64,000 nucleotides of DNA from assembly GCA_964016885.1 (NCBI GenBank), contig OZ024749.1:11718001-11782000 (forward strand), written 5' to 3'. The position numbers were made by a program, and so were the translations under genes. The notes beneath the pieces were generated by a model. That model saw only the letters and a list, made by a program, of their open reading frames with translations, did not search any database and was not told the origin of the DNA. Origin of the DNA: Eledone cirrhosa. Lineage: Eukaryota. This document shows, piece by piece, positions 34,820-64,000 of this stretch (position 1 is the first letter of the stretch; each line of letters opens with the position of its first letter).

Positions 34820-35095
34820 TGGTTTAGTAAGGAAGAGAAGTTCCACCCTTCCATCTGTGATGGTTTCGTAAGGAAGAGAAGTTCCTCCCTTCCATCTGTG
34901 ATGGTTTATTAAGGAAGAGAAGTTCCACCCTTCCACCTGTGATGGTTTAGTAAGGAAGAGAAGTTCCACCCTTCCATCTGTAATGGTTTAATAAGGAAGA
35001 GAAGTTCCACCCTTCCACCTGTGATGGTTTAGTAAGGAAGAGAAGTTCCACCCTTCCATCTGTGATGGTTTATTAAGGAAGGGAAGTTTCACCCG
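34820..35095. repeat. 41-bp minisatellite, about 7 copies
   Basis: Unit tggtttagtaaggaagagaagttccacccttccatctgtga. Confidence 0.92.
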
Positions 35096-35139: not shown

Positions 35140-35251
35140 CCTTGCCTGCGTTCTCTGAGAAGAATCCTGGCTTGAGCAATATAACCATCAAAATCATTAT
35201 TTCTGAAAGTCTTACAGTTAACAAACAACTATTGCAGTTATTGGAAACAAG
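35140..35251 (+). CDS. SHOC1: SHOC1-like visible exon 10 ([38 protein letters not shown])
   Basis: tatccccag acceptor, AG|gtaagt donor, phase 1-2; resembles recalled SHOC1 ASEGLLNTPDILQLLESNYNI. Confidence 0.88.
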
Positions 35252-35316: not shown

Positions 35317-35480
35317 TGTGGTATTCCAGTTCTCTATGGTATTCCAGTTCTCTGTGGTATTCCAGTTCACTGTGGTATTCCAGTTCTCTATGGTATTCCA
35401 GTTCTCTGTGGTATTCCAGTTCTCTATGGTATTCCAGTTCTCTATGGTATTCCAGTTCTCTATGGTATTCCAGTTCTCTG
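35317..35480. repeat. 18-bp minisatellite, about 9 copies
   Basis: Unit tggtattccagttctc(t/c)(a/g). Confidence 0.92.
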
Positions 35481-36230: not shown

Positions 36231-36458
36231 ATATAATATTGTAACCATTGGCGTGATGTTTGAACAGATTTTACCATCTAAAATATTTCAATTTGTTGAT
36301 ATTATTGTTGATGAAAAGAATTCAATTGTATTTTGTACTACATCTCATCTGGAAGAGAAAGCTTTATTAGTCTTAGTATTTCGACTGATGGGTATCAGTT
36401 TGAAATATTCCACATGTTATGTACTTATCACAATTTCACCTGATTCTACAGAAAGTTT
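36231..36458 (+). CDS. SHOC1: SHOC1-like visible exon 11, XPF/ERCC4-like domain ([12 protein letters not shown]...[12 protein letters not shown]...[16 protein letters not shown]...ESL)
   Basis: Long T tract plus ccag acceptor, gtaagt donor, phase 2-2; IIVDE and LSLKYSxCxVI are SHOC1-like. Confidence 0.9.
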
Positions 36459-37030: not shown

Positions 37031-37109
37031 GAATTCTGCTATCAAGAACATTTCTAAATTGCTGGCTTCTCTGACCAATTTCAACATCAATGGAGAATGT
37101 ATGTTTAAG
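37031..37109 (+). CDS. SHOC1: SHOC1-like visible exon 12 ([26 protein letters not shown])
   Basis: ttttag acceptor, AAG|gtaaga donor, phase 2-0. Confidence 0.85.
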
Positions 37110-37204
37110 GTAAGAGTTTATATAAATAAATAAACAAAATTTGTTTTCAGTCTAACATGGTGGAAACCTAAATGTATTCGTGAGTGAATAATAATATTAT
37201 AATA

Positions 37205-37570
37205 ATTGTTTCTAGTTTTGGCACAAGGCCAGCCATTACCCCAATGCATTACTGGTACTTTATTTTATCAACCCTGTAAGGATGAAAGGCAAAGTTAACC
37301 TCAGCGGGATTTGAACTCAGAGCATAAAGGGCCGTAACTCTATGCTGCAAAGCATGGTGTCCGACTCTCTACCGATACTGCCAATCCACCGCCTATAATA
37401 ATTGTTTCTACTTTTGGCACAAGGCCAGCAATTACTCAGTACATATTTTATTGACCCCGTAAGGATGAAAGGCAAACTTAACCTCGACGGGATTTGAACT
37501 CGGAATGGAAAGGGCCGTAACTATACGTCAAAGTATGGCATCCGACACTCTACCGATTCTGCCAATCTAT
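37205..37570 (-). mobile_element. Two tandem SINE copies
   Basis: Reverse complement of the family at 25670 and 40565. Confidence 0.8.
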
Positions 37571-37599: not shown

Positions 37600-40440
37600 C
37601 CTCATAAACAGGATGTGTCAGGTGACCAACATCATCCTTTTGTTCCAGCAGTAGCTGGAGAAAACAATCTACAATTGTTTCGGTGTTTTGCTCAAATGTT
37701 TACATTGATCATCTTTGCCAGGGTTTTCGTGAGGGGCCACATTTCTGCTCCATAGAGGAGAAGGGAGAGGACCAATGCTTTGTAAATATGGAGTTTCATC
37801 TTTTGGGAGATTGAGCAATGGCACCAAAGGGGCTTCCATAGGGAGTGCATGACCCCAGTGGCCAGGCCACATCTGCAGTTGAGGTTTGGGGTCAGATCTC
37901 CATTGCTTGGTGACAGTTGAGCCTAGGTAAATGAAGGAACTGACAAACTCTATGATGTCAAGGCCAATATGAAGCGAAGGTGGACCTGGGCCATTGCTGA
38001 CATCAGCTTTGTCTTCACCCAGCTCACCTGAAGACCAAGCTTTGATGATTCCTCCCAGTGTATGGTCTGTACATCTCTGAGCTGATTGATGGAGTTGCTG
38101 AATGGGGAGGGGTGGAGGTGGGGTGTCATCTGCGTACTCCAGGTTAGTAAAGTGGTAATTCGTGAAGGTAATGCCAGAAACTCACTCACAGACATTGGTC
38201 ATCAAATAGTCAATAGCCACGCAGCCCTGTCTGATAGGGAACCAGTTGGTGTCCTTCACATTCACCTGCACGCAGCTCTCAGCACTGCTATAGAGCCATT
38301 GGAACAAGGTGGTGATCTTGGGTGGCCTTGAGGTTGATGAAGGTGACATAAAGGCAGCGATCTCTACAGAACTCTTGAGATTTTTCTGATAATGAGGCGA
38401 AGGGCAGAAATGTGTCAGCGTTGGATCAATTAGGCATGAATCCAGCTTGTTGTGGGCGACATCCACTTCTGATGGCTGGAAGCACTGTTGAGTAGGATCT
38501 TGGTGAAGATCTTGCTTGGGATGGAAAGAAGAGTGATACGCCTGGGGTTGCTGCAGATGAGTTTGTCACCCTTCCATTTCTAGAAGGGGAGTATAATGCT
38601 TCGGGTCCAGTCATTTGAAAGCTGCTCTGACACCCATACATGGTTGATGATAGGAGTGAGCCACTGGATCATGTTATCTCCACCCGCCTTCAACATCTCC
38701 ATGGTGATAGTGCAGATTCCAGGTAATTTGTGATTTTTTAGCTTCTTCAGGATGGCTCTGACTTCATCAGGAGCGACTGGATTGAATCTTCAGGAGTTGG
38801 CTACAACCATGTCTGAGGTTGGGATTAGGCAGGGATCAATTGGAACGGATGGGTGATGTAGAAGAAGGCTGAAGTGATCTTTCCAGTGTTCAAGGCAGGT
38901 GGTCTCAATGGTGATGACGTTGCCATTGGTATCCTTCACCGGGCACTGGTACGGGCTCTGCAGAGTATGTTGAATACCTGGCTGAGGTTGTTGTTCCTTG
39001 CCACTGTCTCCAGGTGCTCAGCTTCTTTCGCCCAAAACTTCTTCCAGTCATCCGTGATAGCCTTGTTGCGTATCCAGTTGAGCCAGTGGTATTCATTTAT
39101 GTCACCGTGCTGGTGAGCCTTGTGGCAACAGTTAGTTATCTCCAGCATCTGTGGTGAAATCCTGGGTCATTTGCGAAGAGGTCTTGAGTTTACCAGGATG
39201 TTGCGCACAGGCTGGTTGATACTTGGTTTAAAGACCTTCCCAGTTGTTGGTATCATCCTCAGTCAGGACGCTGAAACAATTGGTGAAAGAGAATACAAAT
39301 GTAGGGGTGATGTTGGGATCGTGGAGACAAGATGAATCAGGGCTGGGCTGATACTTAGTGTCAGGATCCACTTGCAATTTCAGCCTCAGTGTCACAACCA
39401 GCAACCAATGATCAGTATTGCCTAGTTAAGCTCCCTTGTAGACCTGTTGGTGATAAATTACCTTTAGTGGCAGAGGAGATGATGATGTAGTTGATTGCCT
39501 TCTGGGTATAACTGTACCAAGTCCAGTGATAGATGAGTTTACAGGGGAACCAGGTGTCGGCGATACAGAAGTTGTTGTAATGGCAGAGGAGCAGCAGGTG
39601 GTTACCTTTGTCATTGGTGGAGGGGTTGGCGAAGGTTGTGCTAAAGAGCTGAGTCTACAATGGGTCGGTTGGAGGGAACCTTGCGGAAGAAGAGATGATA
39701 GATGATCATGATATGATGTCATGGGGTGGGATTTGTTCTAAAACCTGTTGAAAGTGATCATAGTTGTCATCCTTGACAGTGTCTTCTGTGATGTCTGTAG
39801 GGGCATAGGCAATGACGATAGATATCTTGCCGTGTCAGTGGAGAGAACAGGCGGACAGCACATGGTCACTCTCCGAGTTCTAGCTGACTAGGGACTTGCA
39901 GACATACTTGGGCATGGCCAGTGCCATGTCGCAGAGACCCGTCCTATCCTCAGGGTCACTCCAGATGAGGCAGTGGTCTCCCGCGAAGAATTCCCCATGG
40001 CCAGGCCAGTGTGTCTTGCAAAGTCTTGACAATGTGATGTTGCAGTGGGATAGCTCTTGGGACAGAAGGGTAGCTTCTCCGGGGTGAAGTAGAGACAGGA
40101 TATTCCATGTAGCAACACAAATTTTATGGCACAAATCAATTTCTTATTGGTGAAGGGCAGGCAGGGGTCAGTTCTGATGTTGGGCAGTCTGGTTTCTTTT
40201 GGTTGTTTCATAACATTGGTGTTCTCTTCTGGACGGGTTGTTGGCCCTCTGCAGAATAATGATGGGGCTGCCATCTTGGTGGCAAGTGAACACGGCGCAG
40301 GTCACTGTTGGTTTGGAACCTCCCCGGGTCACCGACTTACCTAGGGTGGCCCTACCAGTAGCAAAGCTCCAGATAGTAACATACAGATTTACGGAACACA
40401 CAAGCCCCCTCCTTCCTCACCACGGCAAGGCCAGACACAT
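37600..40440 (-). mobile_element. Long degraded RTE-clade LINE (5' UTR, APE endonuclease, RT)
   Basis: ICVATWNILSL...ELSHCNITL...THWPGHG (APE N-terminus); RT pieces such as KLGLQVSWVKTKLM and FIYLGS; many stops and frameshifts. Confidence 0.85.
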
Positions 40441-40454
40441 TGCAAAGTATTATT

Positions 40455-40795
40455 AATTGCCTTTCATCCTTACGGGGTTGATAAAATAAAGTACCAGTAA
40501 TGTACTGGGTAATTGCTGTCCTTGTGCCTAAAGTAGAAACAATTATTAGAAATCATCCACCGCCTTTGGCGGTGAATTGGCAGTGTCAGTGGAGGTCGGA
40601 CGCCATGCTTTCCAGCATAGTTAAGTCCCTTTATGATCTGAGTTCAAATCCCGCCGAGGTTGACTTTGCCTTTCATCCTTACGGGGTTGATAAAATAGAG
40701 TACAAGTAATGTACTGAGTACCAACACTTGGATCGATTTAATTGACTTTCCCCTCCTCCAAAGTATTTGGTCTTGTGCCTAATTCAGAAACCATT
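40455..40795 (+). mobile_element. SINE fragment plus SINE copy
   Basis: ggcggtgaattggcag...gagttcaaatcccgccgaggttgactttgcctttcatccttacgggg. Confidence 0.8.
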
Positions 40796-40823: not shown

Positions 40824-40958
40824 GTTTTAATTTCTAATGGTATAGAAGAAACAGCAGTACTTATACGTAAAGTCTGTGAACTTTGTCTGATGAGATCAAT
40901 GACTGATACCCAGAAGGAATGGCTTGATCGTGATTGGTTGAAGGAAGATATTTCACAG
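40824..40958 (+). CDS. SHOC1: SHOC1-like visible exon 13 ([45 protein letters not shown])
   Basis: T-rich tag acceptor, CAG|gtatat donor, phase 0-0; closely resembles recalled SHOC1 LIIAPGVEATALIIRQIAD...EWLDKSWL; gene continues beyond the window. Confidence 0.92.
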
Positions 40959-43900
40959 GTATATAACATTGATTGTAGGAAGATGTTTCACAGGTATATA
41001 ACATTGATTGTAGGAAGATATTTCACAGGTATATAACATTGATTGTAGGAAGATATTTCACAGGTGTATAACATTGATTATAGGAAGATATTTCACAGGT
41101 ATATAACATTGATTGTAGGAAGATATTTCACAGGTATATAACATTGATTGTAGGAAGATATTTCACAGGTATATAACATTGATTGTAGGAAGATATTTCA
41201 CAGGTGTATAACATTGATTGTAGGAAGATATTTCACAGGTATATAACATTGATTGTAGGAAGATATTTCACAGGTGTATAACATTCATTGATTGTAGGAA
41301 GATATTTCACAGGTATATAACATTGATTGTAGGAAGATATTTCACAGGTATATAGCATTCATATATAGCATTCATTGATTGTAGGAAGATATTTCACAGG
41401 TATATAACATTGATTGTAGGAAGATATTTCACAGGTATATAACATTGATTGTAGGAAGATATTTCACAGGTGTATAACATTCATTGATTGTAGGAAGATA
41501 TTTCACAGGTATATAACATTGATTGATTGTAGGAAGATATTTCACAGGTATATAACATTCATTGATTGTAGGAAGATATTTCACAGGTATATAACATTGA
41601 TTGATTGTAGGAAGATATTTCACAGGTATATAACATTGATTGTAGGAAGATATTTCACAGGTATATAACATTGATTGTAGGAAGATATTTCACAGGTATA
41701 TAACATTGATTGTAGGAAGATATTTCACAGGTGTATAACATTCATTGATTGTAGGAAGATATTTCACAGGTATATAACATTGATTGTAGGAAGATATTTC
41801 ACAGGTATATAACATTGATTGTAGGAAGATATTTCACAGGTATATAACATTGATTGTAGGAAGATATTTCACAGGTGTATAACATTCATTGATTGTAGGA
41901 AGATATTTCACAGGTATATAACATTGATTGTAGGAAGATATTTCACAGGTATATAACATTGATTGTAGGAAGATATTTCACAGGTATATAACATTGATTG
42001 TAGGAAGATATTTCACAGGTATATAACATTGATTGTAGGAAGATATTTCACAGGTATATAACATTGATTGTAGGAAGATATTTCACAGGTATATAACAAT
42101 GATTGTAGGAAGATATTTCACAGGTATATAACATTGATTGTAGGAAGATATTTCACAGGTGTATAGCATTCATTGATTGTAGGAAGATATTTCACAGGTA
42201 TATAACATTGATTGTAGGAAGATATTTCACAGGTATATAACATTGATTGTAGGAAGATATTTCACAGGTGTATAGCATTCATTGATTGTAGGAAGATATT
42301 TCACAGGTATATAACATTGATTGTAGGAAGATATTTCACAGGTATATAACATTGATTGTAGGAAGATATTTCACAGGTATATAACATTGATTGTAGGAAG
42401 ATATTTCACAGGTGTATAACATTCATTGATTGTAGGAAGATATTTCACAGGTATATAACATTGATTGTAGGAAGATATTTCACAGGTATATAACATTGAT
42501 TGTAGGAAGATATTTCACAGGTGTATAACATTGATTGTAGGAAGATATTTCACAGGTATATAACATTGATTGTAGGAAGATATTTCACAGGTATATAACA
42601 TTGATTGTAGGAAGATATTTCACAGGTATATAACATTGATTGTAGGAAGATATTTCACAGGTATATAACATTGATTGTAGGAAGATATTTCACAGGTGTA
42701 TATCATTCATTGATTGTAGGAAGATATTTCACAGGTATATAACATTGATTGTAGGAAGATATTTCACAGGTATATAACATTGATTGTAGGAAGATATTTC
42801 ACAGGTGTATAACATTGATTGTAGGAAGATATTTCACAGGTATATAACATTGATTGTAGGAAGATATTTCACAGGTGTATAACATTGATTGTAGGAAGAT
42901 ATTTCACAGGTGTATAACATTCATTGATTGTAGGAAGATATTTCACAGGTATATAACATTGATTGTAGGAAGATATTTCACAGGTGTATAGCATTCATTG
43001 ATTGTAGGAAGATATTTCACAGGTATATAACATTGATTGTAGGAAGATATTTCACAGGTATATAACATTGATTGTAGGAAGATATTTCACAGGTATATAA
43101 CATTGATTGTAGGAAGATATTACACAGGTGTATAGCATTCATTGATTGTAGGAAGATATTTCACAGGTATATAACATTGATTGTAGGAAGATATTTCACA
43201 GGTATATAACATTGATTGATTGTAGGAAGATATTTCAAAGGTGTATAACATTCATTGATTGTAGGAAGATATTTCACAGGTATATAACATTGATTGTAGG
43301 AAGATATTTCACAGGTATATAACATTGATTGATTGTAGGAAGATATTTCACAGGTATATAACATTGATTGTAGGAAGATATTTCACAGGTATATAACATT
43401 GATTGTAGGAAGATATTTCACAGGTATATAACATTGATTGATTGTAGGAAGATATTTCACAGGTATATAACATTGATTGTAGGAAGATATTTCACAGGTG
43501 TATAACATTGATTGTAGGAAGATATTTCACAGGTGTATAACATTGATTGTAGGAAGATATTTCACAGGTGTATAACATTGATTGTAGGAAGATATTTCAC
43601 AGGTATATAACATTGATTGTAGGAAGATATTTCACAGGTGTATAACATTGATTGTAGGAAGATATTTCACAGGTGTATAACATTGATTGTAGGAAGATAT
43701 TTCACAGGTATATAACATTGATTGTAGGAAGATATTTCACAGGTGTATAACATTGATTGTAGGAAGATATTTCACAGGTATATAACATTGATTGTAGGAA
43801 GATATTTCACAGGTATATAACATTGATTGATTGTAGGAAGATATTTCACAGGTGTATAACATTCATTGATTGTAGGAAGATATTTCCCAGGTATATAACA

Positions 43901-46900
43901 TTGATTGTAGGAAGATATTTCACAGGTATATAACATTGATTGATTGTAGGAAGATATTTCACAGGTGTATAACATTCATTGATTGTAGGAAGATATTTCA
44001 CAGGTATATAACGTTGATTGTAGGAAGATATTTCACAGGTATATAACATTGATTGATTGTAGGAAGATATTTCACAGGTATATAACATTCATTGATTATA
44101 GGAAGATATTTCACAGGTATATAACATTGATTGTAGGAAGATATTTCACAGGTGTATAACATTCATTGATTGTAGGAAGATATTTCACAGGTATATAACA
44201 TTGATTGTAGGAAGATATTTCACAGGTGTATAACATTGATTGTAGGAAGATATTTCACAGGTATATAACATTGATTGATTGTAGGAAGATATTTCACAGG
44301 TATATAACATTGATTGTAGGAAGATATTTCACAGGTGTATAACATTGATTGTAGGAAGATATTTCACAGGTATATAACATTGATTGTAGGAAGATATTTC
44401 ACAGGTATATAACATTGATTGTAGGAAGATATTTCACAGGTGTATAACATTGATTGTAGGAAGATATTTCACAGGTATATAACATTGATTGTAGGAAGAT
44501 ATTTCACAGGTGTATAACATTCATTGATTGTAGGAAGATATTTCACAGGTATATAACATTGATTGTAGGAAGATATTTCACAGGTATATAACATTGATTG
44601 ATTGTAGGAAGATATTTCACAGGTATATAACATTGATTGTAGGAAGATATTTCACAGATGTATAACATTCATTGATTGTAGGAAGATATTTCACAGGTAT
44701 ATAACATTGATTGTAGGAAGATATTTCACAGGTATATAACATTGATTGTAGGAAGATATTTCACAGGTATATAACATTGATTGTAGGAAGATATTTCACA
44801 GGTGTATAACATTCATTGATTGTAGGAAGATATTTCACAGGTGTATAACATTGATTGTAGGAAGATATTTCACAGGTGTATAACATTGATTGTAGGAAGA
44901 TATTTCACAGGTATATAACATTGATTGATTGTAGGAAGATATTTCACAGGTATATAACATTGATTGTAGGAAGATATTTCACAGGTATATAACATTGATT
45001 GTAGGAAGATATTTCACAGGTATATAACATTGATTGATTGTAGGAAGATATTTCACAGGTATATAACATTGATTGTAGGAAGATATTTCACAGGTGTATA
45101 ACATTGATTGTAGGAAGATATTTCACAGGTGTATAACATTGATTGTAGGAAGATATTTCACAGGTGTATAACATTGATTGTAGGAAGATATTTCACAGGT
45201 ATATAACATTGATTGTAGGAATATATTTCACAGGTATATAACATTGATTGTAGGAAGATATTTCACAGGTATATAACATTGATTGATTGTAGGAAGATAT
45301 TTCACAGGTATATAACATTGATTGTAGGAAGATATTTCACAGGTATATAACATTGATTGTAGGAAGATATTTCACAGGTGTATAACATTGATTGTAGGAA
45401 GATATTTCACAGGTATATAACATTGATTGTAGGAAGATATTTCACAGGTATATAACATTGATTGATTGTAGGAAGATATTTCACAGGTGTATAACATTCA
45501 TTGATTGTAGGAAGATATTTCACAGGTATATAACATTGATTGTAGGAAGATATTTCACAGGTATATAACATTGATTGATTGTAGGAAGATATTTCACAGG
45601 TATATAACATTCATTGATTGTAGGAAGATATTTCACAGGTATATAACATTGATTGTAGGAAGATATTTCACAGGTGTATAACATTGATTGTAGGAAGATA
45701 TTTCACAGGTATATAACATTCATTGATTGTAGGAAGATATTTCACAGGTATATAACATTGATTGATTGTAGGAAGATATTTCACAGGTATATAACATTGA
45801 TTGATTGTAGGAAGATATTTCACAGGTATATAACATTGATTGTAGGAAGATATTTCACAGGTATATAACATTGATTGTAGGAAGATATTTCACAGGTGTA
45901 TAACATTCATTGATTGTAGGAAGATATTTCACAGGTATATAACATTGATTGTAGGAAGATATTTCACAGCTGTATAACATTCATTGATTGTGGGAAGATA
46001 TTTCACAGGTATATAACATTGATTGTAGGAAGATATTTCACAGGTGTATAACATTCATTGATTGTAGGAAGATATTTCACAGGTATATAACATTGATTGT
46101 AGGAAGATATTTCACAGGTGTATAACATTGATTGTAGGAAGATATTTCACAGGTGTATAACATTGATTGTAGGAAGATATTTCACAGGTATATAACATTG
46201 ATTGTAGGAAGATATTTCACAGGTGTATAACATTGATTGTAGGAAGATATTTCACAGGTATATAACATTGATTGTAGGAAGATATTTCACAGGTATATAA
46301 CATTGATTGATTGTAGGAAGATATTTCACAGGTATATAGCATTCATATATAGCATTTATTGATTGTAGGAAGATATTTCACAGGTATATAACATTGATTG
46401 TAGGAAGATATTTCACAGGTATATAACATTCATTGATTGTAGGAAGATATTTCACAGGTATATAACATTCATTGATTGTAGGAAGATATTTCACAGGTGT
46501 ATAACATTCATTGATTGTAGGAAGATATTTCAAAGGTGTATAACATTCATTGATTGTAGGAAGATATTTCACAGGTGTATAACATTGATTGTAGGAAGAT
46601 ATTTCACAGGTGTATAACATTGATTGATTGTAGGAAGATATTTCACAGGTATATAACATTGATTGTAGGAAGATATTTCACAGGTATATAACATTGATTG
46701 TAGGAAGATATTTCATAGGTGTATAACATTGATTGTAGGAAGATATTTCACAGGTGTATAACATTCATTGATTGTAGGAAGATATTTCACAGGTATATAA
46801 CATTGATTGTAGGAAGATATTTCACAGGTATATAACATTCATTAATTGTAGGAAGATATTTCACAGGTGTATAACATTGATTGTAGGAAGATATTTCACA

Positions 46901-49900
46901 GGTATATAACATTGATTGTAGGAAGATATTTCACAGGTGTATAACATTCATTGATTGTAGGAAGATATTTCACAGGTGTATAACATTCATTGATTGTAGG
47001 AAGATATTTCACAGGTGTATAACATTCATTGATTGTAGGAAGATATTTCACAGGTGTATAACATTCATTGATTGTAGGAAGATATTTCACAGGTATATAA
47101 CATTGATTGTAGGAAGATATTTCACAGGTATATAACATTCATTGATTGTAGGAAGATATTTCACAGGTATATAACATTGATTGATTGTAGGAAGATATTT
47201 CACAGGTATATAACATTGATTGTAGGAAGATATTTCACAGGTGTATAACATTCATTGATTGTAGGAAGATATTTCACAGGTATATAACATTGATTGTAGG
47301 AAGATATTTCACAGGTGTATAGCATTCATTGATTGTAGGAAGATATTTCACAGGTATATAACATTGATTGTAGGAAGATATTTCACAGGTATATAACATT
47401 GATTGTAGGAAGATATTTCACAGGTATATAACATTGATTGTAGGAAGATATTACACAGGTGTATAGCATTCATTGATTGTAGGAAGATATTTCACAGGTA
47501 TATAACATTGATTGTAGGAAGATATTTCACAGGTATATAACATTGATTGATTGTAGGAAGATATTTCAAAGGTGTATAACATTCATTGATTGTAGGAAGA
47601 TATTTCACAGGTATATAACATTGATTGTAGGAAGATATTTCACAGGTATATAACATTGATTGTAGGAAGATATTTCACAGGTATATAACATTGATTGTAG
47701 GAAGATATTTCACAGGTATATAACATTGATTGTAGGAAGATATTTCACAGGTATATAACATTGATTGTAGGAAGATATTTCACAGGTATATAACATTGAT
47801 TGTAGGAAGATATTTCACAGGTATATAACATTGATTGTAGGAAGATATTTCACAGGTGTATAACATTGATTGTAGGAAGATATTTCAAAGGTGTATAACA
47901 TTGATTGTAGTAAGATATTTCACAGGTGTATAACATTCATTGATTGTAGGAAGATATTTCACAGGTGTATAACATTGATTGTAGGAAGATATTTCACAGG
48001 TGTATAACATTGATTGTAGGAAGATATTTCACAGGTATATAACATTGATTGATTGTAGGAAGATATTTCACAGGTATATAACATTGATTGTAGGAAGATA
48101 TTTCACAGGTATATAACATTGATTGTAGGAAGATATTTCACAGGTATATAACATTGATTGATTGTAGGAAGATATTTCACAGGTATATAACATTGATTGT
48201 AGGAAGATATTTCACAGGTGTATAACATTGATTGTAGGAAGATATTTCACAGGTGTATAACATTGATTGTAGGAAGATATTTCACAGGTGTATAACATTG
48301 ATTGTAGGAAGATATTTCACAGGTATATAACATTGATTGTAGGAAGATATTTCACAGGTGTATAACATTGATTGTAGGAAGATATTTCACAGGTGTATAA
48401 CATTGATTGTAGGAAGATATTTCACAGGTATATAACATTGATTGTAGGAAGATATTTCACAGGTGTATAACATTGATTGTAGGAAGATATTTCACAGGTA
48501 TATAACATTGATTGTAGGAAGATATTTCACAGGTATATAACATTGATTGATTGTAGGAAGATATTTCACAGGTGTATAACATTCATTGATTGTAGGAAGA
48601 TATTTCACAGGTATATAACATTGATTGTAGGAAGATATTTCACAGGTATATAACATTGATTGTAGGAAGATATTTCACAGGTATATAACATTCATTGATT
48701 ATAGGAAGATATTTCACAGGTATATAACATTGATTGTAGGAAGATATTTCACAGGTGTATAACATTCATTGATTGTAGGAAGATATTTCACAGGTATATA
48801 ACATTGATTGTAGGAAGATATTTCACAGGTGTATAACATTGATTGTAGGAAGATATTTCACAGGTATATAACATTCATTGATTGTAGGAAGATATTTCAC
48901 AGGTATATAACATTGATTGTAGGAAGATATTTCACAGGTATATAACATTGATTGTAGGAAGATATTTCACAGGTATATAACATTGATTGTAGGAAGATAT
49001 TTCACAGGTATATAACATTGATTGTAGGAAGATATTTCACAGGTATATAACATTGATTGTAGGAAGATATTTCACAGGTATATAACATTTATTGTAGGAA
49101 GATATTTCACAGGTATATAACATTGATTGTAGGAAGATATTTCACAGGTATATAACATTGATTGTAGGAAGATATTTCACAGGTATATAACAATGATTGT
49201 AGGAAGATATTTCACAGGTATATAACATTGATTGTAGGAAGATATTTCACAGGTGTATAGCATTCATTGATTGTAGGAAGATATTTCACAGGTATATAAC
49301 ATTGATTGTAGGAAGATATTTCACAGGTATATAACATTGATTGTAGGAAGATATTTCACAGGTGTATAGCATTCATTGATTGTAGGAAGATATTTCACAG
49401 GTATATAACATTGATTGTAGGAAGATATTTCACAGGTATATAACATTGATTGTAGGAAGATATTTCACAGGTATATAACATTGATTGTAGGAAGATATTT
49501 CACAGGTGTATAACATTCATTGATTGTAGGAAGATATTTCACAGGTATATAACATTGATTGTAGGAAGATATTTCACAGGTATATAACATTGATTGTAGG
49601 AAGATATTTCACAGGTGTATAACATTGATTGTAGGAAGATATTTCACAGGTATATAACATTGATTGTAGGAAGATATTTCACAGGTATATAACATTGATT
49701 GTAGGAAGATATTTCACAGGTATATAACATTGATTGTAGGAAGATATTTCACAGGTATATAACATTGATTGTAGGAAGATATTTCACAGGTGTATATCAT
49801 TCATTGATTGTAGGAAGATATTTCACAGGTATATAACATTGATTGTAGGAAGATATTTCACAGGTATATAACATTGATTGTAGGAAGATATTTCACAGGT

Positions 49901-52900
49901 GTATAACATTGATTGTAGGAAGATATTTCACAGGTATATAACATTGATTGTAGGAAGATATTTCACAGGTGTATAACATTGATTGTAGGAAGATATTTCA
50001 CAGGTGTATAACATTCATTGATTGTAGGAAGATATTTCACAGGTATATAACATTGATTGTAGGAAGATATTTCACAGGTGTATAGCATTCATTGATTGTA
50101 GGAAGATATTTCACAGGTATATAACATTGATTGTAGGAAGATATTTCACAGGTATATAACATTGATTGTAGGAAGATATTTCACAGGTATATAACATTGA
50201 TTGTAGGAAGATATTACACAGGTGTATAGCATTCATTGATTGTAGGAAGATATTTCACAGGTATATAACATTGATTGTAGGAAGATATTTCACAGGTATA
50301 TAACATTGATTGATTGTAGGAAGATATTTCAAAGGTGTATAACATTCATTGATTGTAGGAAGATATTTCACAGGTATATAACATTGATTGTAGGAAGATA
50401 TTTCACAGGTATATAACATTGATTGATTGTAGGAAGATATTTCACAGGTATATAACATTGATTGTAGGAAGATATTTCACAGGTATATAACATTGATTGT
50501 AGGAAGATATTTCACAGGTATATAACATTGATTGATTGTAGGAAGATATTTCACAGGTATATAACATTGATTGTAGGAAGATATTTCACAGGTGTATAAC
50601 ATTGATTGTAGGAAGATATTTCACAGGTGTATAACATTGATTGTAGGAAGATATTTCACAGGTGTATAACATTGATTGTAGGAAGATATTTCACAGGTAT
50701 ATAACATTGATTGTAGGAAGATATTTCACAGGTATATAACATTGATTGATTGTAGGAAGATATTTCACAGGTATATAACATTGATTGTAGGAAGATATTT
50801 CACAGGTATATAACATTGATTGTAGGAAGATATTTCACAGGTATATAACATTGATTGATTGTAGGAAGATATTTCACAGGTGTATAACATTCATTGATTG
50901 TAGGAAGATATTTCACAGGTATATAACATTGATTGTAGGAAGATATTTCACAGGTATATAACATTGATTGATTGTAGGAAGATATTTCACAGGTATATAA
51001 CATTGATTGTAGGAAGATATTTCACAGGTGTATAACATTGATTGTAGGAAGATATTTCACAGGTATATAACATTCATTGATTGTAGGAAGATATTTCACA
51101 GGTATATAACATTGATTGTAGGAAGATATTTCACAGGTGTATAACATTGATTGTAGGAAGATATTTCACAGGTATATAACATTGATTGTAGGAAGATATT
51201 TCACAGGTATATAACATTGATTGTAGGAAGATATTTCACAGGTGTATAACATTGATTGTAGGAAGATATTTCACAGGTATATAACATTGATTGTAGGAAG
51301 ATATTTCACAGGTGTATAACATTCATTGATTGTAGGAAGATATTTCACAGGTATATAACATTGATTGTAGGAAGATATTTCACAGGTATATAACATTGAT
51401 TGATTGTAGGAAGATATTTCACAGGTATATAACATTGATTGTAGGAAGATATTTCACAGGTGTATAACATTCATTGATTGTAGGAAGATATTTCACAGGT
51501 ATATACCATTGATTGTAGGAAGATATTTCACAGGTATATAACATTGATTGTAGGAAGATATTTCACAGGTATATAACATTGATTGTAGGAAGATATTTCA
51601 CAGGTGTATAACATTCATTGATTGTAGGAAGATATTTCACAGGTGTATAACATTGATTGTAGGAAGATATTTCACAGGTGTATAACATTGATTGTAGGAA
51701 GATATTTCACAGGTATATAACATTGATTGATTGTAGGAAGATATTTCACAGGTATATAACATTGATTGTAGGAAGATATTTCACAGGTATATAACATTGA
51801 TTGTAGGAAGATATTTCACAGGTATATAACATTGATTGATTGTAGGAAGATATTTCACAGGTATATAACATTGATTGTAGGAAGATATTTCACAGGTGTA
51901 TAACATTGATTGTAGGAAGATATTTCACAGGTGTATAACATTGATTGTAGGAAGATATTTCACAGGTATATAACATTGATTGTAGGAAGATATTTCACAG
52001 GTATATAACATTGATTGTAGGAATATATTTCACAGGTATATAACATTGATTGTAGGAAGATATTTCACAGGTATATAACATTGATTGATTGTAGGAAGAT
52101 ATTTCACAGGTATATAACATTGATTGTAGGAAGATATTTCACAGGTATATAACATTGATTGTAGGAAGATATTTCACAGGTGTATAACATTGATTGTAGG
52201 AAGATATTTCACAGGTATATAACATTGATTGTAGGAAGATATTTCACAGGTATATAACATTGATTGATTGTAGGAAGATATTTCACAGGTGTATAACATT
52301 CATTGATTGTAGGAAGATATTTCACAGGTATATAACATTGATTGTAGGAAGATATTTCACAGGTATATAACATTGATTGATTGTAGGAAGATATTTCACA
52401 GGTATATAACATTCATTGATTGTAGGAAGATATTTCACAGGTATATAACATTGATTGTAGGAAGATATTTCACAGGTGTATAACATTGATTGTAGGAAGA
52501 TATTTCACAGGTATATAACATTCATTGATTGTAGGAAGATATTTCACAGGTATATAACATTGATTGATTGTAGGAAGATATTTCACAGGTATATAACATT
52601 GATTGATTGTAGGAAGATATTTCACAGGTATATAACATTGATTGTAGGAAGATATTTCACAGGTATATAACATTGATTGTAGGAAGATATTTCACAGGTG
52701 TATAACATTCATTGATTGTAGGAAGATATTTCACAGGTATATAACATTGATTGTAGGAAGATATTTCACAGCTGTATAACATTCATTGATTGTGGGAAGA
52801 TATTTCACAGGTATATAACATTGATTGTAGGAAGATATTTCACAGGTGTATAACATTCATTGATTGTAGGAAGATATTTCACAGGTATATAACATTGATT

Positions 52901-55900
52901 GTAGGAAGATATTTCACAGGTGTATAACATTGATTGTAGGAAGATATTTCACAGGTGTATAACATTGATTGTAGGAAGATATTTCACAGGTATATAACAT
53001 TGATTGTAGGAAGATATTTCACAGGTGTATAACATTGATTGTAGGAAGATATTTCACAGGTATATAACATTGATTGTAGGAAGATATTTCACAGGTGTAT
53101 AACATTGATTGTAGGAAGATATTTCACAGGTATATAACATTGATTGTAGGAAGATATTTCACAGGTATATAACATTGATTGTAGGAAGATATTTCACAGG
53201 TGTATAACATTGATTGTAGGAAGATATTTCACAGGTATATAACATTGATTGTAGGAAGATATTTCACAGGTGTATAACATTCATTGATTGTAGGAAGATA
53301 TTTCACAGGTATATAACATTGATTGTAGGAAGATATTTCACAGGTATATAACATTGATTGATTGTAGGAAGATATTTCACAGGTATATAACATTGATTGT
53401 AGGAAGATATTTCACAGGTGTATAACATTCATTGATTGTAGGAAGATATTTCACAGGTATATAACATTGATTGTAGGAAGATATTTCACAGGTATATAAC
53501 ATTGATTGTAGGAAGATATTTCACAGGTATATAACATTGATTGTAGGAAGATATTTCACAGGTGTATAACATTCATTGATTGTAGGAAGATATTTCACAG
53601 GTGTATAACATTGATTGTAGGAAGATATTTCACAGGTGTATAACATTGATTGTAGGAAGATATTTCACAGGTATATAACATTGATTGATTGTAGGAAGAT
53701 ATTTCACAGGTATATAACATTGATTGTAGGAAGATATTTCACAGGTATATAACATTGATTGTAGGAAGATATTTCACAGGTATATAACATTGATTGATTG
53801 TAGGAAGATATTTCACAGGTATATAACATTGATTGTAGGAAGATATTTCACAGGTGTATAACATTGATTGTAGGAAGATATTTCACAGGTGTATAACATT
53901 GATTGTAGGAAGATATTTCACAGGTGTATAACATTGATTGTAGGAAGATATTTCACAGGTATATAACATTGATTGTAGGAATATATTTCACAGGTATATA
54001 ACATTGATTGTAGGAAGATATTTCACAGGTATATAACATTGATTGATTGTAGGAAGATATTTCACAGGTATATAACATTGATTGTAGGAAGATATTTCAC
54101 AGGTATATAACATTGATTGTAGGAAGATATTTCACAGGTGTATAACATTGATTGTAGGAAGATATTTCACAGGTATATAACATTGATTGTAGGAAGATAT
54201 TTCACAGGTATATAACATTGATTGATTGTAGGAAGATATTTCACAGGTGTATAACATTCATTGATTGTAGGAAGATATTTCACAGGTATATAACATTGAT
54301 TGTAGGAAGATATTTCACAGGTATATAACATTGATTGATTGTAGGAAGATATTTCACAGGTATATAACATTCATTGATTGTAGGAAGATATTTCACAGGT
54401 ATATAACATTGATTGTAGGAAGATATTTCACAGGTGTATAACATTGATTGTAGGAAGATATTTCACAGGTATATAACATTCATTGATTGTAGGAAGATAT
54501 TTCACAGGTATATAACATTGATTGATTGTAGGAAGATATTTCACAGGTATATAACATTGATTGATTGTAGGAAGATATTTCACAGGTATATAACATTGAT
54601 TGTAGGAAGATATTTCACAGGTATATAACATTGATTGTAGGAAGATATTTCACAGGTGTATAACATTCATTGATTGTAGGAAGATATTTCACAGGTATAT
54701 AACATTGATTGTAGGAAGATATTTCACAGCTGTATAACATTCATTGATTGTGGGAAGATATTTCACAGGTATATAACATTGATTGTAGGAAGATATTTCA
54801 CAGGTGTATAACATTCATTGATTGTAGGAAGATATTTCACAGGTATATAACATTGATTGTAGGAAGATATTTCACAGGTGTATAACATTGATTGTAGGAA
54901 GATATTTCACAGGTGTATAACATTGATTGTAGGAAGATATTTCACAGGTATATAACATTGATTGTAGGAAGATATTTCACAGGTGTATAACATTGATTGT
55001 AGGAAGATATTTCACAGGTATATAACATTGATTGTAGGAAGATATTTCACAGGTATATAACATTGATTGATTGTAGGAAGATATTTCACAGGTATATAGC
55101 ATTCATATATAGCATTTATTGATTGTAGGAAGATATTTCACAGGTATATAACATTGATTGTAGGAAGATATTTCACAGGTATATAACATTCATTGATTGT
55201 AGGAAGATATTTCACAGGTATATAACATTCATTGATTGTAGGAAGATATTTCACAGGTGTATAACATTCATTGATTGTAGGAAGATATTTCAAAGGTGTA
55301 TAACATTCATTGATTGTAGGAAGATATTTCACAGGTGTATAACATTGATTGTAGGAAGATATTTCACAGGTGTATAACATTGATTGATTGTAGGAAGATA
55401 TTTCACAGGTATATAACATTGATTGTAGGAAGATATTTCACAGGTATATAACATTGATTGTAGGAAGATATTTCATAGGTGTATAACATTGATTGTAGGA
55501 AGATATTTCACAGGTGTATAACATTCATTGATTGTAGGAAGATATTTCACAGGTATATAACATTGATTGTAGGAAGATATTTCACAGGTATATAACATTC
55601 ATTAATTGTAGGAAGATATTTCACAGGTGTATAACATTGATTGTAGGAAGATATTTCACAGGTATATAACATTGATTGTAGGAAGATATTTCACAGGTGT
55701 ATAACATTCATTGATTGTAGGAAGATATTTCACAGGTGTATAACATTCATTGATTGTAGGAAGATATTTCACAGGTGTATAACATTCATTGATTGTAGGA
55801 AGATATTTCACAGGTGTATAACATTCATTGATTGTAGGAAGATATTTCACAGGTATATAACATTGATTGTAGGAAGATATTTCACAGGTATATAACATTC

Positions 55901-58900
55901 ATTGATTGTAGGAAGATATTTCACAGGTATATAACATTGATTGATTGTAGGAAGATATTTCACAGGTATATAACATTGATTGTAGGAAGATATTTCACAG
56001 GTGTATAACATTCATTGATTGTAGGAAGATATTTCACAGGTATATAACATTGATTGTAGGAAGATATTTCACAGGTGTATAGCATTCATTGATTGTAGGA
56101 AGATATTTCACAGGTATATAACATTGATTGTAGGAAGATATTTCACAGGTATATAACATTGATTGTAGGAAGATATTTCACAGGTATATAACATTGATTG
56201 TAGGAAGATATTACACAGGTGTATAGCATTCATTGATTGTAGGAAGATATTTCACAGGTATATAACATTGATTGTAGGAAGATATTTCACAGGTATATAA
56301 CATTGATTGATTGTAGGAAGATATTTCAAAGGTGTATAACATTCATTGATTGTAGGAAGATATTTCACAGGTATATAACATTGATTGTAGGAAGATATTT
56401 CACAGGTATATAACATTGATTGTAGGAAGATATTTCACAGGTATATAACATTGATTGTAGGAAGATATTTCACAGGTATATAACATTGATTGTAGGAAGA
56501 TATTTCACAGGTATATAACATTGATTGTAGGAAGATATTTCACAGGTATATAACATTGATTGTAGGAAGATATTTCACAGGTATATAACATTGATTGTAG
56601 GAAGATATTTCACAGGTGTATAACATTGATTGTAGGAAGATATTTCAAAGGTGTATAACATTGATTGTAGTAAGATATTTCACAGGTGTATAACATTCAT
56701 TGATTGTAGGAAGATATTTCACAGGTGTATAACATTGATTGTAGGAAGATATTTCACAGGTGTATAACATTGATTGTAGGAAGATATTTCACAGGTATAT
56801 AACATTGATTGATTGTAGGAAGATATTTCACAGGTATATAACATTGATTGTAGGAAGATATTTCACAGGTATATAACATTGATTGTAGGAAGATATTTCA
56901 CAGGTATATAACATTGATTGATTGTAGGAAGATATTTCACAGGAATATAACATTGATTGTAGGAAGATATTTCACAGGTGTATAACATTGATTGTAGGAA
57001 GATATTTCACAGGTGTATAACATTGATTGTAGGAAGATATTTCACAGGTGTATAACATTGATTGTAGGAAGATATTTCACAGGTATATAACATTGATTGT
57101 AGGAAGATATTTCACAGGTGTATAACATTGATTGTAGGAAGATATTTCACAGGTGTATAACATTGATTGTAGGAAGATATTTCACAGGTATATAACATTG
57201 ATTGTAGGAAGATATTTCACAGGTGTATAACATTGATTGTAGGAAGATATTTCACAGGTATATAACATTGATTGTAGGAAGATATTTCACAGGTATATAA
57301 CATTGATTGATTGTAGGAAGATATTTCACAGGTGTATAACATTCATTGATTGTAGGAAGATATTTCACAGGTATATAACATTGATTGTAGGAAGATATTT
57401 CACAGGTATATAACATTGATTGTAGGAAGATATTTCACAGGTATATAACATTCATTGATTATAGGAAGATATTTCACAGGTATATAACATTGATTGTAGG
57501 AAGATATTTCACAGGTGTATAACATTCATTGATTGTAGGAAGATATTTCACAGGTATATAACATTGATTGTAGGAAGATATTTCACAGGTGTATAACATT
57601 GATTGTAGGAAGATATTTCACAGGTATATAACATTGATTGTAGGAAGATATTTCACAGGTATATAACATTGATTGTAGGAAGATATTTCACAGGTGTATA
57701 ACATTGATTGTAGGAAGATATTTCACAGGTATATAACATTGATTGTAGGAAGATATTTCACAGGTGTATAACATTCATTGATTGTAGGAAGATATTTCAC
57801 AGGTATATAACATTGATTGTAGGAAGATATTTCACAGGTATATAACATTGATTGATTGTAGGAAGATATTTCACAGGTATATAACATTGATTGTAGGAAG
57901 ATATTTCACAGGTGTATAACATTCATTGATTGTAGGAAGATATTTCACAGGTATATAACATTGATTGTAGGAAGATATTTCACAGGTATATAACATTGAT
58001 TGTAGGAAGATATTTCACAGGTGTATAACATTGATTGTAGGAAGATATTTCACAGGTGTATAACATTGATTGTAGGAAGATATTTCACAGGTGTATAACA
58101 TTGATTGTAGGAAGATATTTCACAGGTATATAACATTGATTGTAGGAATATATTTCACAGGTATATAACATTGATTGTAGGAAGATATTTCACAGGTATA
58201 TAACATTGATTGTAGGAAGATATTTCACAGGTATATAACATTGATTGATTGTAGGAAGATATTTCACAGGTATATAACATTGATTGTAGGAAGATATTTC
58301 ACAGGTATATAACATTGATTGTAGGAAGATATTTCACAGGTGTATAACATTGATTGTAGGAAGATATTTCACAGGTATATAACATTGATTGTAGGAAGAT
58401 ATTTCACAGGTATATAACATTGATTGATTGTAGGAAGATATTTCACAGGTGTATAACATTCATTGATTGTAGGAAGATATTTCACAGGTATATAACATTG
58501 ATTGTAGGAAGATATTTCACAGGTATATAACATTGATTGATTGTAGGAAGATATTTCACAGGTATATAACATTCATTGATTGTAGGAAGATATTTCACAG
58601 GTATATAACATTGATTGTAGGAAGATATTTCACAGGTGTATAACATTGATTGTAGGAAGATATTTCACAGGTATATAACATTCATTGATTGTAGGAAGAT
58701 ATTTCACAGGTATATAACATTGATTGATTGTAGGAAGATATTTCACAGGTATATAACATTGATTGATTGTAGGAAGATATTTCACAGGTATATAACATTG
58801 ATTGTAGGAAGATATTTCACAGGTATATAACATTGATTGATTGTAGGAAGATATTTCACAGGTGTATAACATTCATTGATTGTAGGAAGATATTTCACAG

Positions 58901-61900
58901 GTATATAACATTGATTGTAGGAAGATATTTCACAGCTGTATAACATTCATTGATTGTAGGAAGATATTTCACAGGTATATAACATTGATTGTAGGAAGAT
59001 ATTTCACAGGTGTATAACATTCATTGATTGTAGGAAGATATTTCACAGGTATATAACATTGATTGTAGGAAGATATTTCACAGGTGTATAACATTGATTG
59101 TAGGAAGATATTTCACAGGTGTATAACATTGATTGTAGGAAGATATTTCACAGGTATATAACATTGATTGTAGGAAGATATTTCACAGGTGTATAACATT
59201 GATTGTAGGAAGATATTTCACAGGTATATAACATTGATTGTAGGAAGATATTTCACAGGTATATAACATTGATTGATTGTAGGACGATATTTCACAGGTA
59301 TATAGCATTCATATATAGCATTTATTGATTGTAGGAAGATATTTCACAGGTATATAACATTGATTGTAGGAAGATATTTCACAGGTATATAACATTCATT
59401 GATTGTAGGAAGATATTTCACAGGTATATAACAATCATTGATTGTAGGAAGATATTTCACAGGTGTATAACATTCATTGATTGTAGGAAGATATTTCAAA
59501 GGTGTATAACATTCATTGATTGTAGGAAGATATTTCACAGGTGTATAACATTGATTGTAGGAAGATATTTCACAGGTGTATAACATTGATTGATTGTAGG
59601 AAGATATTTCACAGGTATATAACATTGATTGTAGGAAGATATTTCACAGGTATATAACATTGATTGTAGGAAGATATTTCATAGGTGTATAACATTGATT
59701 GTAGGAAGATATTTCACAGGTGTATAACATTCATTGATTGTAGGAAGATATTTCACAGGTATATAACATTGATTGTAGGAAGATATTTCACAGGTATATA
59801 ACATTCATTAATTGTAGGAAGATATTTCACAGGTGTATAACATTGATTGTAGGAAGATATTTCACAGGTATATAACATTGATTGTAGGAAGATATTTCAC
59901 AGGTGTATAACATTCATTGATTGTAGGAAGATATTTCACAGGTGTATAACATTCATTGATTGTAGGAAGATATTTCACAGGTGTATAACATTCATTGATT
60001 GTAGGAAGATATTTCACAGGTGTATAACATTCATTGATTGTAGGAAGATATTTCACAGGTATATAACATTGATTGTAGGAAGATATTTCACAGGTATGTA
60101 ACATTCATTGATTGTAGGAAGATATTTCACAGGTATATAACATTGATTGATTGTAGGAAGATATTTCACAGGTATATAACATTGATTGTAGGAAGATATT
60201 TCACAGGTGTATAACATTCATTGATTGTAGGAAGATATTTCACAGGTATATAACATTGATTGTAGGAAGATATTTCACAGGTGTATAGCATTCATTGATT
60301 GTAGGAAGATATTTCACAGGTATATAACATTGATTGTAGGAAGATATTTCACAGGTATATAACATTGATTGTAGGAAGATATTTCACAGGTATATAACAT
60401 TGATTGTAGGAAGATATTACACAGGTGTATAGCATTCATTGATTGTAGGAAGATATTTCACAGGTATATAACATTGATTGTAGGAAGATATTTCACAGGT
60501 ATATAACATTGATTGATTGTAGGAAGATATTTCAAAGGTGTATAACATTCATTGATTGTAGGAAGATATTTCACAGGTATATAACATTGATTGTAGGAAG
60601 ATATTTCACAGGTATATAACATTGATTGTAGGAAGATATTTCACAGGTATATAACATTGATTGTAGGAAGATATTTCACAGGTATATAACATTGATTGTA
60701 GGAAGATATTTCACAGGTATATAACATTGATTGTAGGAAGATATTTCACAGGTATATAACATTGATTGTAGGAAGATATTTCACAGGTCTATAACATTGA
60801 TTGTAGGAAGATATTTCACAGGTGTATAACATTGATTGTAGGAAGATATTTCAAAGGTGTATAACATTGATTGTAGTAAGATATTTCACAGGTGTATAAC
60901 ATTCATTGATTGTAGGAAGATATTTCACAGGTGTATAACATTGAATGTAGGAAGATATTTCACAGGTGTATAACATTGATTGTAGGAAGATATTTCACAG
61001 GTATATAACATTGATTGATTGTAGGAAGATATTTCACAGGTATATAACATTGATTGTAGGAAGATATTTCACAGGTATATAACATTGATTGTAGGAATAT
61101 ATTTCACAGGTATATAACATTGATTGTAGGAAGATATTTCACAGGTATATAACATTGATTGTAGGAAGATATTTCACAGGTATATAACATTGATTGATTG
61201 TAGGAAGATATTTCACAGGTATATAACATTGATTGTAGGAAGATATTTCACAGGTATATAACATTGATTGTAGGAAGATATTTCACAGGTGTATAACATT
61301 GATTGTAGGAAGATATTTCACAGGTATATAACATTGATTGTAGGAAGATATTTCACAGGTATATAACATTGATTGATTGTAGGAAGATATTTCACAGGTA
61401 TATAACATTCATTGATTGTAGGAAGATATTTCACAGGTATATAACATTGATTGTAGGAAGATATTTCACAGGTGTATAACATTGATTGTAGGAAGATATT
61501 TCACAGGTATATAACATTCATTGATTGTAGGAAGATATTTCACAGGTATATAACATTGATTGATTGTAGGAAGATATTTCACAGGTATATAACATTGATT
61601 GATTGTAGGAAGATATTTCACAGGTATATAACATTGATTGTAGGAAGATATTTCACAGGTATATAACATTGATTGTAGGAAGATATTTCACAGGTGTATA
61701 ACATTCATTGATTGTAGGAAGATATTTCACAGGTATATAACATTGATTGTAGGAAGATATTTCACAGCTGTATAACATTCATTGATTGTAGGAAGATATT
61801 TCACAGGTATATAACATTGATTGTAGGAAGATATTTCACAGGTGTATAACATTCATTGATTGTAGGAAGATATTTCACAGGTATATAACATTGATTGTAG

Positions 61901-64000
61901 GAAGATATTTCACAGGTGTATAACATTGATTGTAGGAAGATATTTCACAGGTGTATAACATTGATTGTAGGAAGATATTTCACAGGTATATAACATTGAT
62001 TGTAGGAAGATATTTCACAGGTGTATAACATTGATTGTAGGAAGATATTTCACAGGTATATAACATTGATTGTAGGAAGATATTTCACAGGTATATAACA
62101 TTGATTGATTGTAGGAAGATATTTCACAGGTATATAGCATTCATATATAGCATTTATTGATTGTAGGAAGATATTTCACAGGTATATAACATTGATTGTA
62201 GGAAGATATTTCACAGGTATATAACATTCATTGATTGTAGGAAGATATTTCACAGGTATATAACAATCATTGATTGTAGGAAGATATTTCACAGGTGTAT
62301 AACATTCATTGATTGTAGGAAGATATTTCAAAGGTGTATAACATTCATTGATTGTAGGAAGATATTTCACAGGTGTATAACATTGATTGTAGGAAGATAT
62401 TTCACAGGTGTATAACATTGATTGATTGTAGGAAGATATTTCACAGGTATATAACATTGATTGTAGGAAGATATTTCACAGGTATATAACATTGATTGTA
62501 GGAAGATATTTCATAGGTGTATAACATTGATTGTAGGAAGATATTTCACAGGTGTATAACATTCATTGATTGTAGGAAGATATTTCACAGGTATATAACA
62601 TTGATTGTAGGAAGATATTTCACAGGTATATAACATTCATTAATTGTAGGAAGATATTTCACAGGTGTATAACATTGATTGTAGGAAGATATTTCACAGG
62701 TATATAACATTGATTGTAGGAAGATATTTCACAGGTGTATAACATTCATTGATTGTAGGAAGATATTTCACAGGTGTATAACATTCATTGATTGTAGGAA
62801 GATATTTCACAGGTGTATAACATTCATTGATTGTAGGAAGATATTTCACAGGTGTATAACATTCATTGATTGTAGGAAGATATTTCACAGGTATATAACA
62901 TTGATTGTAGGAAGATATTTCACAGGTATATAACATTCATTGATTGTAGGAAGATATTTCACAGGTATATAACATTGATTGATTGTAGGAAGATATTTCA
63001 CAGGTATATAACATTGATTGTAGGAAGATATTTCACAGGTGTATAACATTCATTGATTGTAGGAAGATATTTCACAGGTATATAACATTGATTGTAGGAA
63101 GATATTTCACAGGTGTATAGCATTCATTGATTGTAGGAAGATATTTCACAGGTATATAACATTGATTGTAGGAAGATATTTCACAGGTATATAACATTGA
63201 TTGTAGGAAGATATTTCACAGGTATATAACATTGATTGTAGGAAGATATTACACAGGTGTATAGCATTCATTGATTGTAGGAAGATATTTCACAGGTATA
63301 TAACATTGATTGTAGGAAGATATTTCACAGGTATATAACATTGATTGATTGTAGGAAGATATTTCAAAGGTGTATAACATTCATTGATTGTAGGAAGATA
63401 TTTCACAGGTATATAACATTGATTGTAGGAAGATATTTCACAGGTATATAACATTGATTGTAGGAAGATATTTCACAGGTATATAACATTGATTGTAGGA
63501 AGATATTTCACAGGTATATAACATTGATTGTAGGAAGATATTTCACAGGTATATAACATTGATTGTAGGAAGATATTTCACAGGTATATAACATTGATTG
63601 TAGGAAGATATTTCACAGGTATATAACATTGATTGTAGGAAGATATTTCACAGGTGTATAACATTGATTGTAGGAAGATATTTCAAAGGTGTATAACATT
63701 GATTGTAGTAAGATATTTCACAGGTGTATAACATTCATTGATTGTAGGAAGATATTTCACAGGTGTATAACATTGATTGTAGGAAGATATTTCACAGGTG
63801 TATAACATTGATTGTAGGAAGATATTTCACAGGTATATAACATTGATTGATTGTAGGAAGATATTTCACAGGTATATAACATTGATTGTAGGAAGATATT
63901 TCACAGGTATATAACATTGATTGTAGGAAGATATTTCACAGGTATATAACATTGATTGATTGTAGGAAGATATTTCACAGGTATATAACATTGATTGTAG
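40931..64000 (+). repeat. Intronic 35/39-bp satellite, at least 23 kb, about 640 copies; monomer = exon 13 3' end plus splice donor
   Basis: Unit aggaagatatttcacag|gtatataacattgattgt with +4 nt variants; runs to window end; kb-scale higher-order repeats. Confidence 0.98.

Follow-up and report, generated by a model that had tools for sequence, protein, structure and literature searches.

When the 5′ splice site of a coding exon is followed by well over a thousand close copies of itself, two questions arise: where the copies came from, and which of the many donors the gene uses. This is the situation in the 64,000-nucleotide stretch of Eledone cirrhosa DNA analysed here (the window), in which a minisatellite starts inside an exon of a predicted meiotic gene and runs on beyond the window's end. 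Positions are those of the window, continued past 64,000 where needed (extended coordinates), and all features lie on the forward strand.

The host gene and its minisatellite

Sequence homology identifies the host gene as octopod SHOC1 (DUF5587). Its product is homologous to annotated orthologs of SHOC1/Zip2 (C9orf84), and two of its exons, at 40824-40958 and 36231-36458, match PF17825, which we take to be the SHOC1 family. The nearest proteins come from Octopus bimaculoides and O. vulgaris (79%), and also from Argonauta; NCBI gives one member of the O. bimaculoides protein cluster the name ‘protein shortage in chiasmata 1 ortholog’. Nineteen exons could be placed by tblastn and splice signals, giving an open frame of 1,257 codons with a single terminal stop, in a model that covers the 5′ end of the gene only partly. 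This product is 66% identical to the O. bimaculoides protein and holds no insertion at the array junction, the frame being intact across the array intron.

Within the window, tblastn hits, exon boundaries and the open frame define eight exons at 2745-2975, 6836-6934, 7081-7170, 16950-17060, 22562-22729, 25026-25160, 26306-26442, and 28930-29054. These are followed, on the same evidence, by the exons at 33383-33582, which bears a smaller donor array of its own, at 35140-35251, and at 37031-37109, directly upstream of the array exon; between the last two lies the PF17825 exon at 36231-36458, with 79% identity to Octopus homologs. The exon whose 3′ end seeded the array lies at 40824-40958 (135 nt, phase 0/0, PF17825 E=5e-7), and is 80, 84, and 67% identical to three octopod homologs. 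A preliminary description of this DNA had called it exon 13, which holds for the window but not for the gene, where at least three further exons lie upstream and it is at least the 16th. The next exon is found at 112062-112105 in extended coordinates.

In mouse, SHOC1 is an ERCC4-(HhH)2-like protein expressed mainly in adult testis, and a hypomorphic Shoc1 allele leads to meiotic arrest, as reported in PMC5962103. The mammalian ortholog is required for meiosis, and germ-line expression of the gene is presumed in Eledone cirrhosa as well. ERCC4/XPF-like features in the octopod protein scored under 0.9 and are taken as a lead only; a sequence search of the PDB with a homolog as the query returned three matches, none of them under E 0.35.

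The minisatellite spans positions 40933-109518 (contig positions 11758933-11827518), as delimited by TRF and by a donor-type pattern. It extends over 68.6 kb without any N, a length taken from the assembly of a 3.0 Gb genome, and occupies most of a host intron of 71.1 kb (40959-112061). The part inside the window (40933-64000) was counted as 636 copies with a 35-bp period by TRF and as 623 donor-type sites by the pattern, hence ~630, and the whole array as 1,885 copies and 1,847 donor-type 9-mers, respectively, hence ~1,850 units. The preliminary description, which reported at least 23 kb of donor copies and about 640 of them, was therefore accurate for the window, but its copy number falls well short of the array total.

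The authentic donor, CAG|GTATAT, is predicted from frame and homology at 40956-40964, with the cut at 40958|40959; the CAG|GT proposed there, after an exon end encoding DWLKEDISQ, is present at exactly that position. Including this first donor, the array holds 1,181 CAG|GTATAT, 625 CAG|GTGTAT, and 41 other donor-type 9-mers. Cutting it at these sites yields 1,846 intervals of 91 kinds, of which 1,173 measure 35 bp and 627 measure 39 bp. The 39-bp variant singled out earlier, of which the window contains 68 copies and the entire array 201, does differ from the last 28 nucleotides of the exon at only two positions, as had been stated. The units follow a changing higher-order arrangement, with blocks as long as 93 units (3.4 kb) reappearing unchanged 75-594 units further on, and the 3′ end of the array passes cleanly into unique sequence.

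Origin of the array

The likely founder unit lies at 40933-40967. It comprises 26 nt of exon and 9 nt of intron, is flanked by a 3-nt ATT microhomology, and is identical to the commonest monomer at 33 of its 35 positions, the only two differences being G>A at 40937 and A>T at 40941. A satellite family dispersed in the genome or residing at centromeres would place the same monomer at many loci, which is not what is found. An exact genome-wide search for a 25-nt monomer core, of the kind that the preliminary description had called for, returned 1,707 forward and 0 reverse matches, and the array itself holds 1,707, so that it is confined to a single locus at exact identity, with no copy at an unrelated one. 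The reversed control pattern gave 0 matches in the genome against these 1,707, which excludes a chance origin of the matches, and looser copies of the monomer were not found in 112 other loci.

The direction of the change can be read from the protein. The tryptophan at the exon end, whose codon is altered in the monomer, is shared by 49 of the 51 homologs that cover the site (54 tested), which means that the exon state is ancestral and the monomer changes are derived. Across the whole array, no monomer retains the exon-type sequence at either of the two changed positions. The proposal that the array was seeded from the gene's own junction is thus strengthened both by its restriction to one locus and by the conservation of this residue.

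Taken together, the array likely began as one 35-bp tandem duplication across the SHOC1 exon-intron boundary. This initial duplication could have been produced by slippage or repair at the ATT microhomology, after which the two substitutions would have been fixed in the founder copy before its expansion, and the growth to ~1,850 copies would have proceeded by slippage and unequal exchange. The 4-nt variants suggest slippage, through which the 39-mers would have arisen from the 35-mer, while the identical blocks of up to 3.4 kb suggest unequal exchange and recent turnover. For this large tandem array the starting event, one 35-bp duplication, is clearly traceable, and the ancestral copy survives in the exon.

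Donor choice in a junction-spanning array

By its sequence, the SHOC1 array belongs to the known class of junction-spanning minisatellites. Its first unit crosses the boundary (40933-40967, with the exon ending at 40958), the donor is copied exactly in later units (1,180 more CAG|GTATAT, next to the 625 CAG|GTGTAT), and the repeat is locus-specific and derived from its host gene. A well-described member of the class is found in intron 7 of human F7, where a 37-bp VNTR of 5-9 copies has a unit that spans the junction (Borensztajn et al. 2006, PMC1557585). According to that study, the 4-8 identical pseudo-donors of F7 can function, but splicing leaves them aside and takes only the most upstream donor; when this donor is mutated, the next one takes over. 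Only a pseudo-site with perfect consensus competes and shifts splicing, and distance from the exon favours skipping. That paper also describes arrays of 10-25 copies in 6-16 (IFI6) intron 2 and CBS intron 13, where two extra pseudo-sites are used besides the authentic donor, and in LMNB2 and PDGF, where only the first donor is used (PMC1557585).

All of these share their architecture with the SHOC1 array, and in F7, as here, unit 1 spans the exon-intron boundary with a nearly equal period (37 bp, compared to 35-39 bp). Despite these similarities, F7 has 5-9 copies instead of ~1,850 and 4 exon nucleotides per unit instead of 26, and its donor use was tested, whereas that of SHOC1 is predicted from sequence alone. 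The SHOC1 array has ~70 times more units than the largest junction case listed in PMC1557585. What is new here is this scale, together with the setting in a cephalopod meiotic gene, the class itself having been known since 2006 or earlier. No cephalopod case and no array of this size appeared among the matches listed from a largely open-access literature; other human donor VNTRs were looked for with 0 matches, and PMC10078293 offered nothing further on junction arrays. The choice among hundreds of donors that the preliminary description saw this gene as facing is better regarded not as a new problem but as part of an arrangement that has already been described (PMC1557585).

A looser resemblance exists to the Drosophila Y fertility genes kl-3 and kl-5, whose gigantic introns are filled with satellites (PMC11207136; PMC6508621; PMC12965833). 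In both systems, a fertility-related gene holds an intron made up mostly of tandem repeats. However, the introns of kl-3 and kl-5 reach from hundreds of kilobases to megabases, a range well above the 71.1 kb of the SHOC1 intron, and, unlike their satellites, the SHOC1 array consists of the gene's own splice junction.

Several features point to the first donor as the one that is likely spliced. Joined to the exon at 112062-112105, donor 1 produces the open frame of 1,257 codons, and the glutamate at position +9, encoded by that exon and found in 50 of the 51 scored homologs, falls in register only with this donor. As had been noticed previously, donors 2 (+35) and 3 (+70) shift the frame, and every donor from the fourth (+105) onward includes the in-frame TAA at 41034-41036, the first stop met on reading through into the array. 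With donors 2, 3, and 4, premature stops fall 1,548-1,630 nt before the last junction, in agreement with the earlier view that, under simple extension, donor 1 alone is productive. A premature stop far upstream of the last junction triggers NMD, to which transcripts from donors 2-4 would be subject.

Donor 1 is not an especially strong site. On an approximate donor matrix it scores 2.9 bits, which places it above 10 of the 18 remaining donors of the gene; the CAG|GTGTAT type scores 2.1, and no decoy 9-mer exceeds donor 1. Neither AG|GTAAG nor AG|GTGAG occurs in any tenth of the array. Structural masking of the decoys was considered and rejected, as each of 200 shuffled versions of the junction region gave a better fold than the region itself (z +2.7). 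The observation that both founder substitutions make stops in the exon frame was likewise set aside as post hoc. Of 84 single changes, 8 would do so, and in the reading frame that really follows donor 1, A>T abolishes a TGA and makes no stop.

The single-locus array is probably a passenger and not a regulator, tolerated because splicing would start from the most upstream donor. Based on the mammalian work, donor 1 would be chosen by 5′-to-3′ scanning or by exon definition, and any leak would go to the nearest few copies, would not scale with the length of the array, and would be cleared by NMD. Since F7, CBS, and 6-16 use the first donor, with or without two nearby extras, decay that depends on array length appears unlikely by analogy, although this precedent covers arrays of 5-25 copies, ~70 times fewer than here. 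With the first-donor rule resting on mammalian arrays of that size, SHOC1 represents a natural test of it at ~1,850 copies and in a mollusc. If the rule holds here, it would explain how such arrays can grow free of cost; if it fails, repeat length would control a crossover gene.

Among the readings that would assign the array a function, one supposes that the decoys are actively silenced: through its A>T change, the founder copy lost the purine-rich exon end and gained a UAGG that lies ~15 nt ahead of every decoy donor, and only a unit muted in this way could expand. TAGG does occur 1,848 times in the array, the exon-type purine run is found in no monomer, and UAGG is described as an exonic silencer linked to hnRNP A1 in mammals (PMC1079783). 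However, changes in a founder copy reach all of its descendants even in the absence of selection, and in the published case silencing by UAGG also required a donor-proximal GGGG (PMC1079783), which the common monomers do not have. Moreover, position and not cis-elements accounts for the silent pseudo-donors of F7 (PMC1557585), and the 16-bp and 67-bp donor arrays of SHOC1 itself persist with UAGG missing from some of their units, so that active silencing seems improbable. A rheostat along the lines of the preliminary description, in which each decoy leaks a little and the array length sets the share of SHOC1 lost to NMD, and hence crossover capacity, is very improbable. The premature stops of donors 2-4, the TAA included by all later donors, and the 1,180 decoys that share the 9-mer of donor 1 would all fit it, but, given the limits on exon size, no copy beyond the first few should serve as a donor, and leakage should accordingly not rise with the length of the array. 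The arrest of the mouse hypomorph (PMC5962103) also speaks for this dial, while the leakage published so far speaks against it, being restricted to two extra pseudo-sites (in 6-16 the most proximal two) and falling with distance (PMC1557585). A broader proposal, that either array length or a UAGG-bearing variant sets the level of intact germ-line SHOC1 mRNA, whether by leaking decoys, by titrating U1, or by slowing splicing down, is a long shot. On this view the array would be a dial for crossover and fertility that evolves fast, and SHOC1 would be a hotspot for donor arrays.

The same units might instead form a ladder for recursive splicing, most of them reading CAG|GT and serving as acceptor and donor at once, so that the 71-kb intron is removed stepwise, but this is highly improbable. 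Recursive splice sites are AG|GT ratchet points, and CAG|GT is present in most units of the array: CAG stands immediately before 1,813 of the 1,847 donor-type sites and TAG before seven, and a junction rebuilt in this way would necessarily keep the frame. A recursive site also needs a strong acceptor, with a pyrimidine tract and a zone free of AG, and here the SHOC1 unit departs from the pattern. Its pyrimidine share is 0.41, as low as in just one of the 19 real SHOC1 acceptors, it holds two AGs within the 20 nt upstream, where none of the 19 has any, and it has four G, where none has three or more. Inflation of a short array by the assembler is scarcely credible, and as the whole story it is unlikely. 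Assemblers can indeed misjudge length where blocks as large as 93 units (3.4 kb) return unaltered several kilobases away, but the array contains no N, shows 91 distinct units in changing higher-order order, and ends cleanly in unique sequence. In three runs from one sample, the contig depth summed over the first monomers reaches 1,705-5,590, compared with 18-25 for a unique exon, a quantity that fits many copies in the raw data but does not represent a copy number, from a sample that is possibly the one assembled. These runs, of unrecorded kind, cover introns and show no exon-exon joint among the 15 of 1,155 joints displayed, and were therefore treated as DNA; a search with the 1.4-kb downstream exon of the gene listed no RNA sample containing it.

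Arrays elsewhere in the genome and in SHOC1

Multi-kilobase arrays are common in this genome. In 40 evenly spaced 6-kb stretches, 19% of the bases are minisatellite; arrays of at least 3 kb occur in 6 of the 40, and five stretches are nearly all array. Outside its main array, SHOC1 is ~30% minisatellite (28,648 of 94,671 bp), with two of these further arrays reaching 10.3 and 6.3 kb, and the control exon loci are 8% minisatellite.

A genome-wide preference of arrays for donors was evaluated on 108 control exon ends, corresponding to 58, 12, and 38 places from myosin, kinesin, and MutS searches. These controls omit four kinesin loci (L046-L049, near-whole-domain and apparently intronless) and 79 of the 191 listed matches, and each donor was chosen automatically as the best GT near the end of the profile match, so that some are wrong or paralogous. 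None of the 108 ends (0/68 and 0/40) carries a donor array, with ~1.3 expected from an intronic background in which 79 of 6,605 GTs (1.2%) fall in the first unit of an array, and such a preference is therefore rejected.

SHOC1 itself holds two more donor-spanning arrays. One of them, a small array of 16 bp x 12 detected by TRF at 33573-33767, starts inside the exon at 33383-33582 and spans its donor at 33582, and the other, of 67 bp x 3, is located just upstream of the window. Donor-spanning arrays are thus found at three of the 19 donors of the gene, or at two of 18 when the main array is left aside. The latter figure gives p=0.08 against the background of the gene's own introns (88/3,368) and p=0.02 against the control background, which places the donor arrays of SHOC1 somewhat above the expectation from neutral seeding.

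Further donor-spanning arrays and arrays beside SHOC1 exons

Besides the main 35/39-bp donor array, SHOC1 holds a second donor-spanning array of twelve 16-bp units (window 33573-33767), which begins in the end of exon 33383-33582. Its decoy donors are strong, of the G|GTAAGT type, and read-through into the array reaches a TAA after 6 codons. A third, of three 67-69-bp units, lies at the end of the exon adjoining the window upstream (-406 to -197 in window-extended numbering, where negative positions are upstream; stretch L012).

Other arrays lie near exons of this gene, and minisatellites make up 19% of the exon flanks of SHOC1 compared to 8% at the control loci. One, of 10.3 kb (63 bp x 168; -19126 to -8792, across the upstream stretches L012 and L013), stops ~30 nt short of a SHOC1 acceptor, which lies outside the array. 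Small arrays at 24542-24961, 25228-25548, 34819-35094, 35319-35479 and 29148-29290 have a start or end no more than 45-100 nt away from SHOC1 exons.

Downstream edge and acceptor of the main donor array

The sense strand of the main donor array contains neither AATAAA nor ATTAAA. Directly after its last unit, an AATAAA is followed by a T-rich tract ending in CAG (about 109520-109575, in the neighbouring stretch L008), which, judging from its sequence, looks like a strong cryptic acceptor. This stretch has a dispersed-repeat match in 2 of the 112 other loci. Further on, the acceptor after the array (L008, 112059-112070) carries extra AGs at +4 and +8, both weak candidate acceptors (AAG); by sequence, the frame would be restored if the +4 AG were paired with donor 3, and the +8 AG with donor 2.

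Dispersed repeats and genome-wide arrays

A 48-bp tandem family occurs at 14696-15796 and 23645-24093, as well as at several control loci. Present in many places and in both orientations, it is a dispersed minisatellite family, unlike the main donor array, which is single-locus. The SHOC1 introns also hold decayed reverse-transcriptase-like (LINE-type) fragments (19800-21150, 29800-31900, 32000-32950, 34330-34770 and 37700-40300) and short interspersed repeats of very high copy, with a depth of >1 million at 37178-37503 and 40438-40763.

The Eledone cirrhosa genome seems to be rich in large and varied arrays: among 40 stretches of 6 kb sampled at even intervals (L088-L127), 5 consist almost entirely of tandem repeats, and no two of these share a period (26, 27, 45, 84 and 468 bp).
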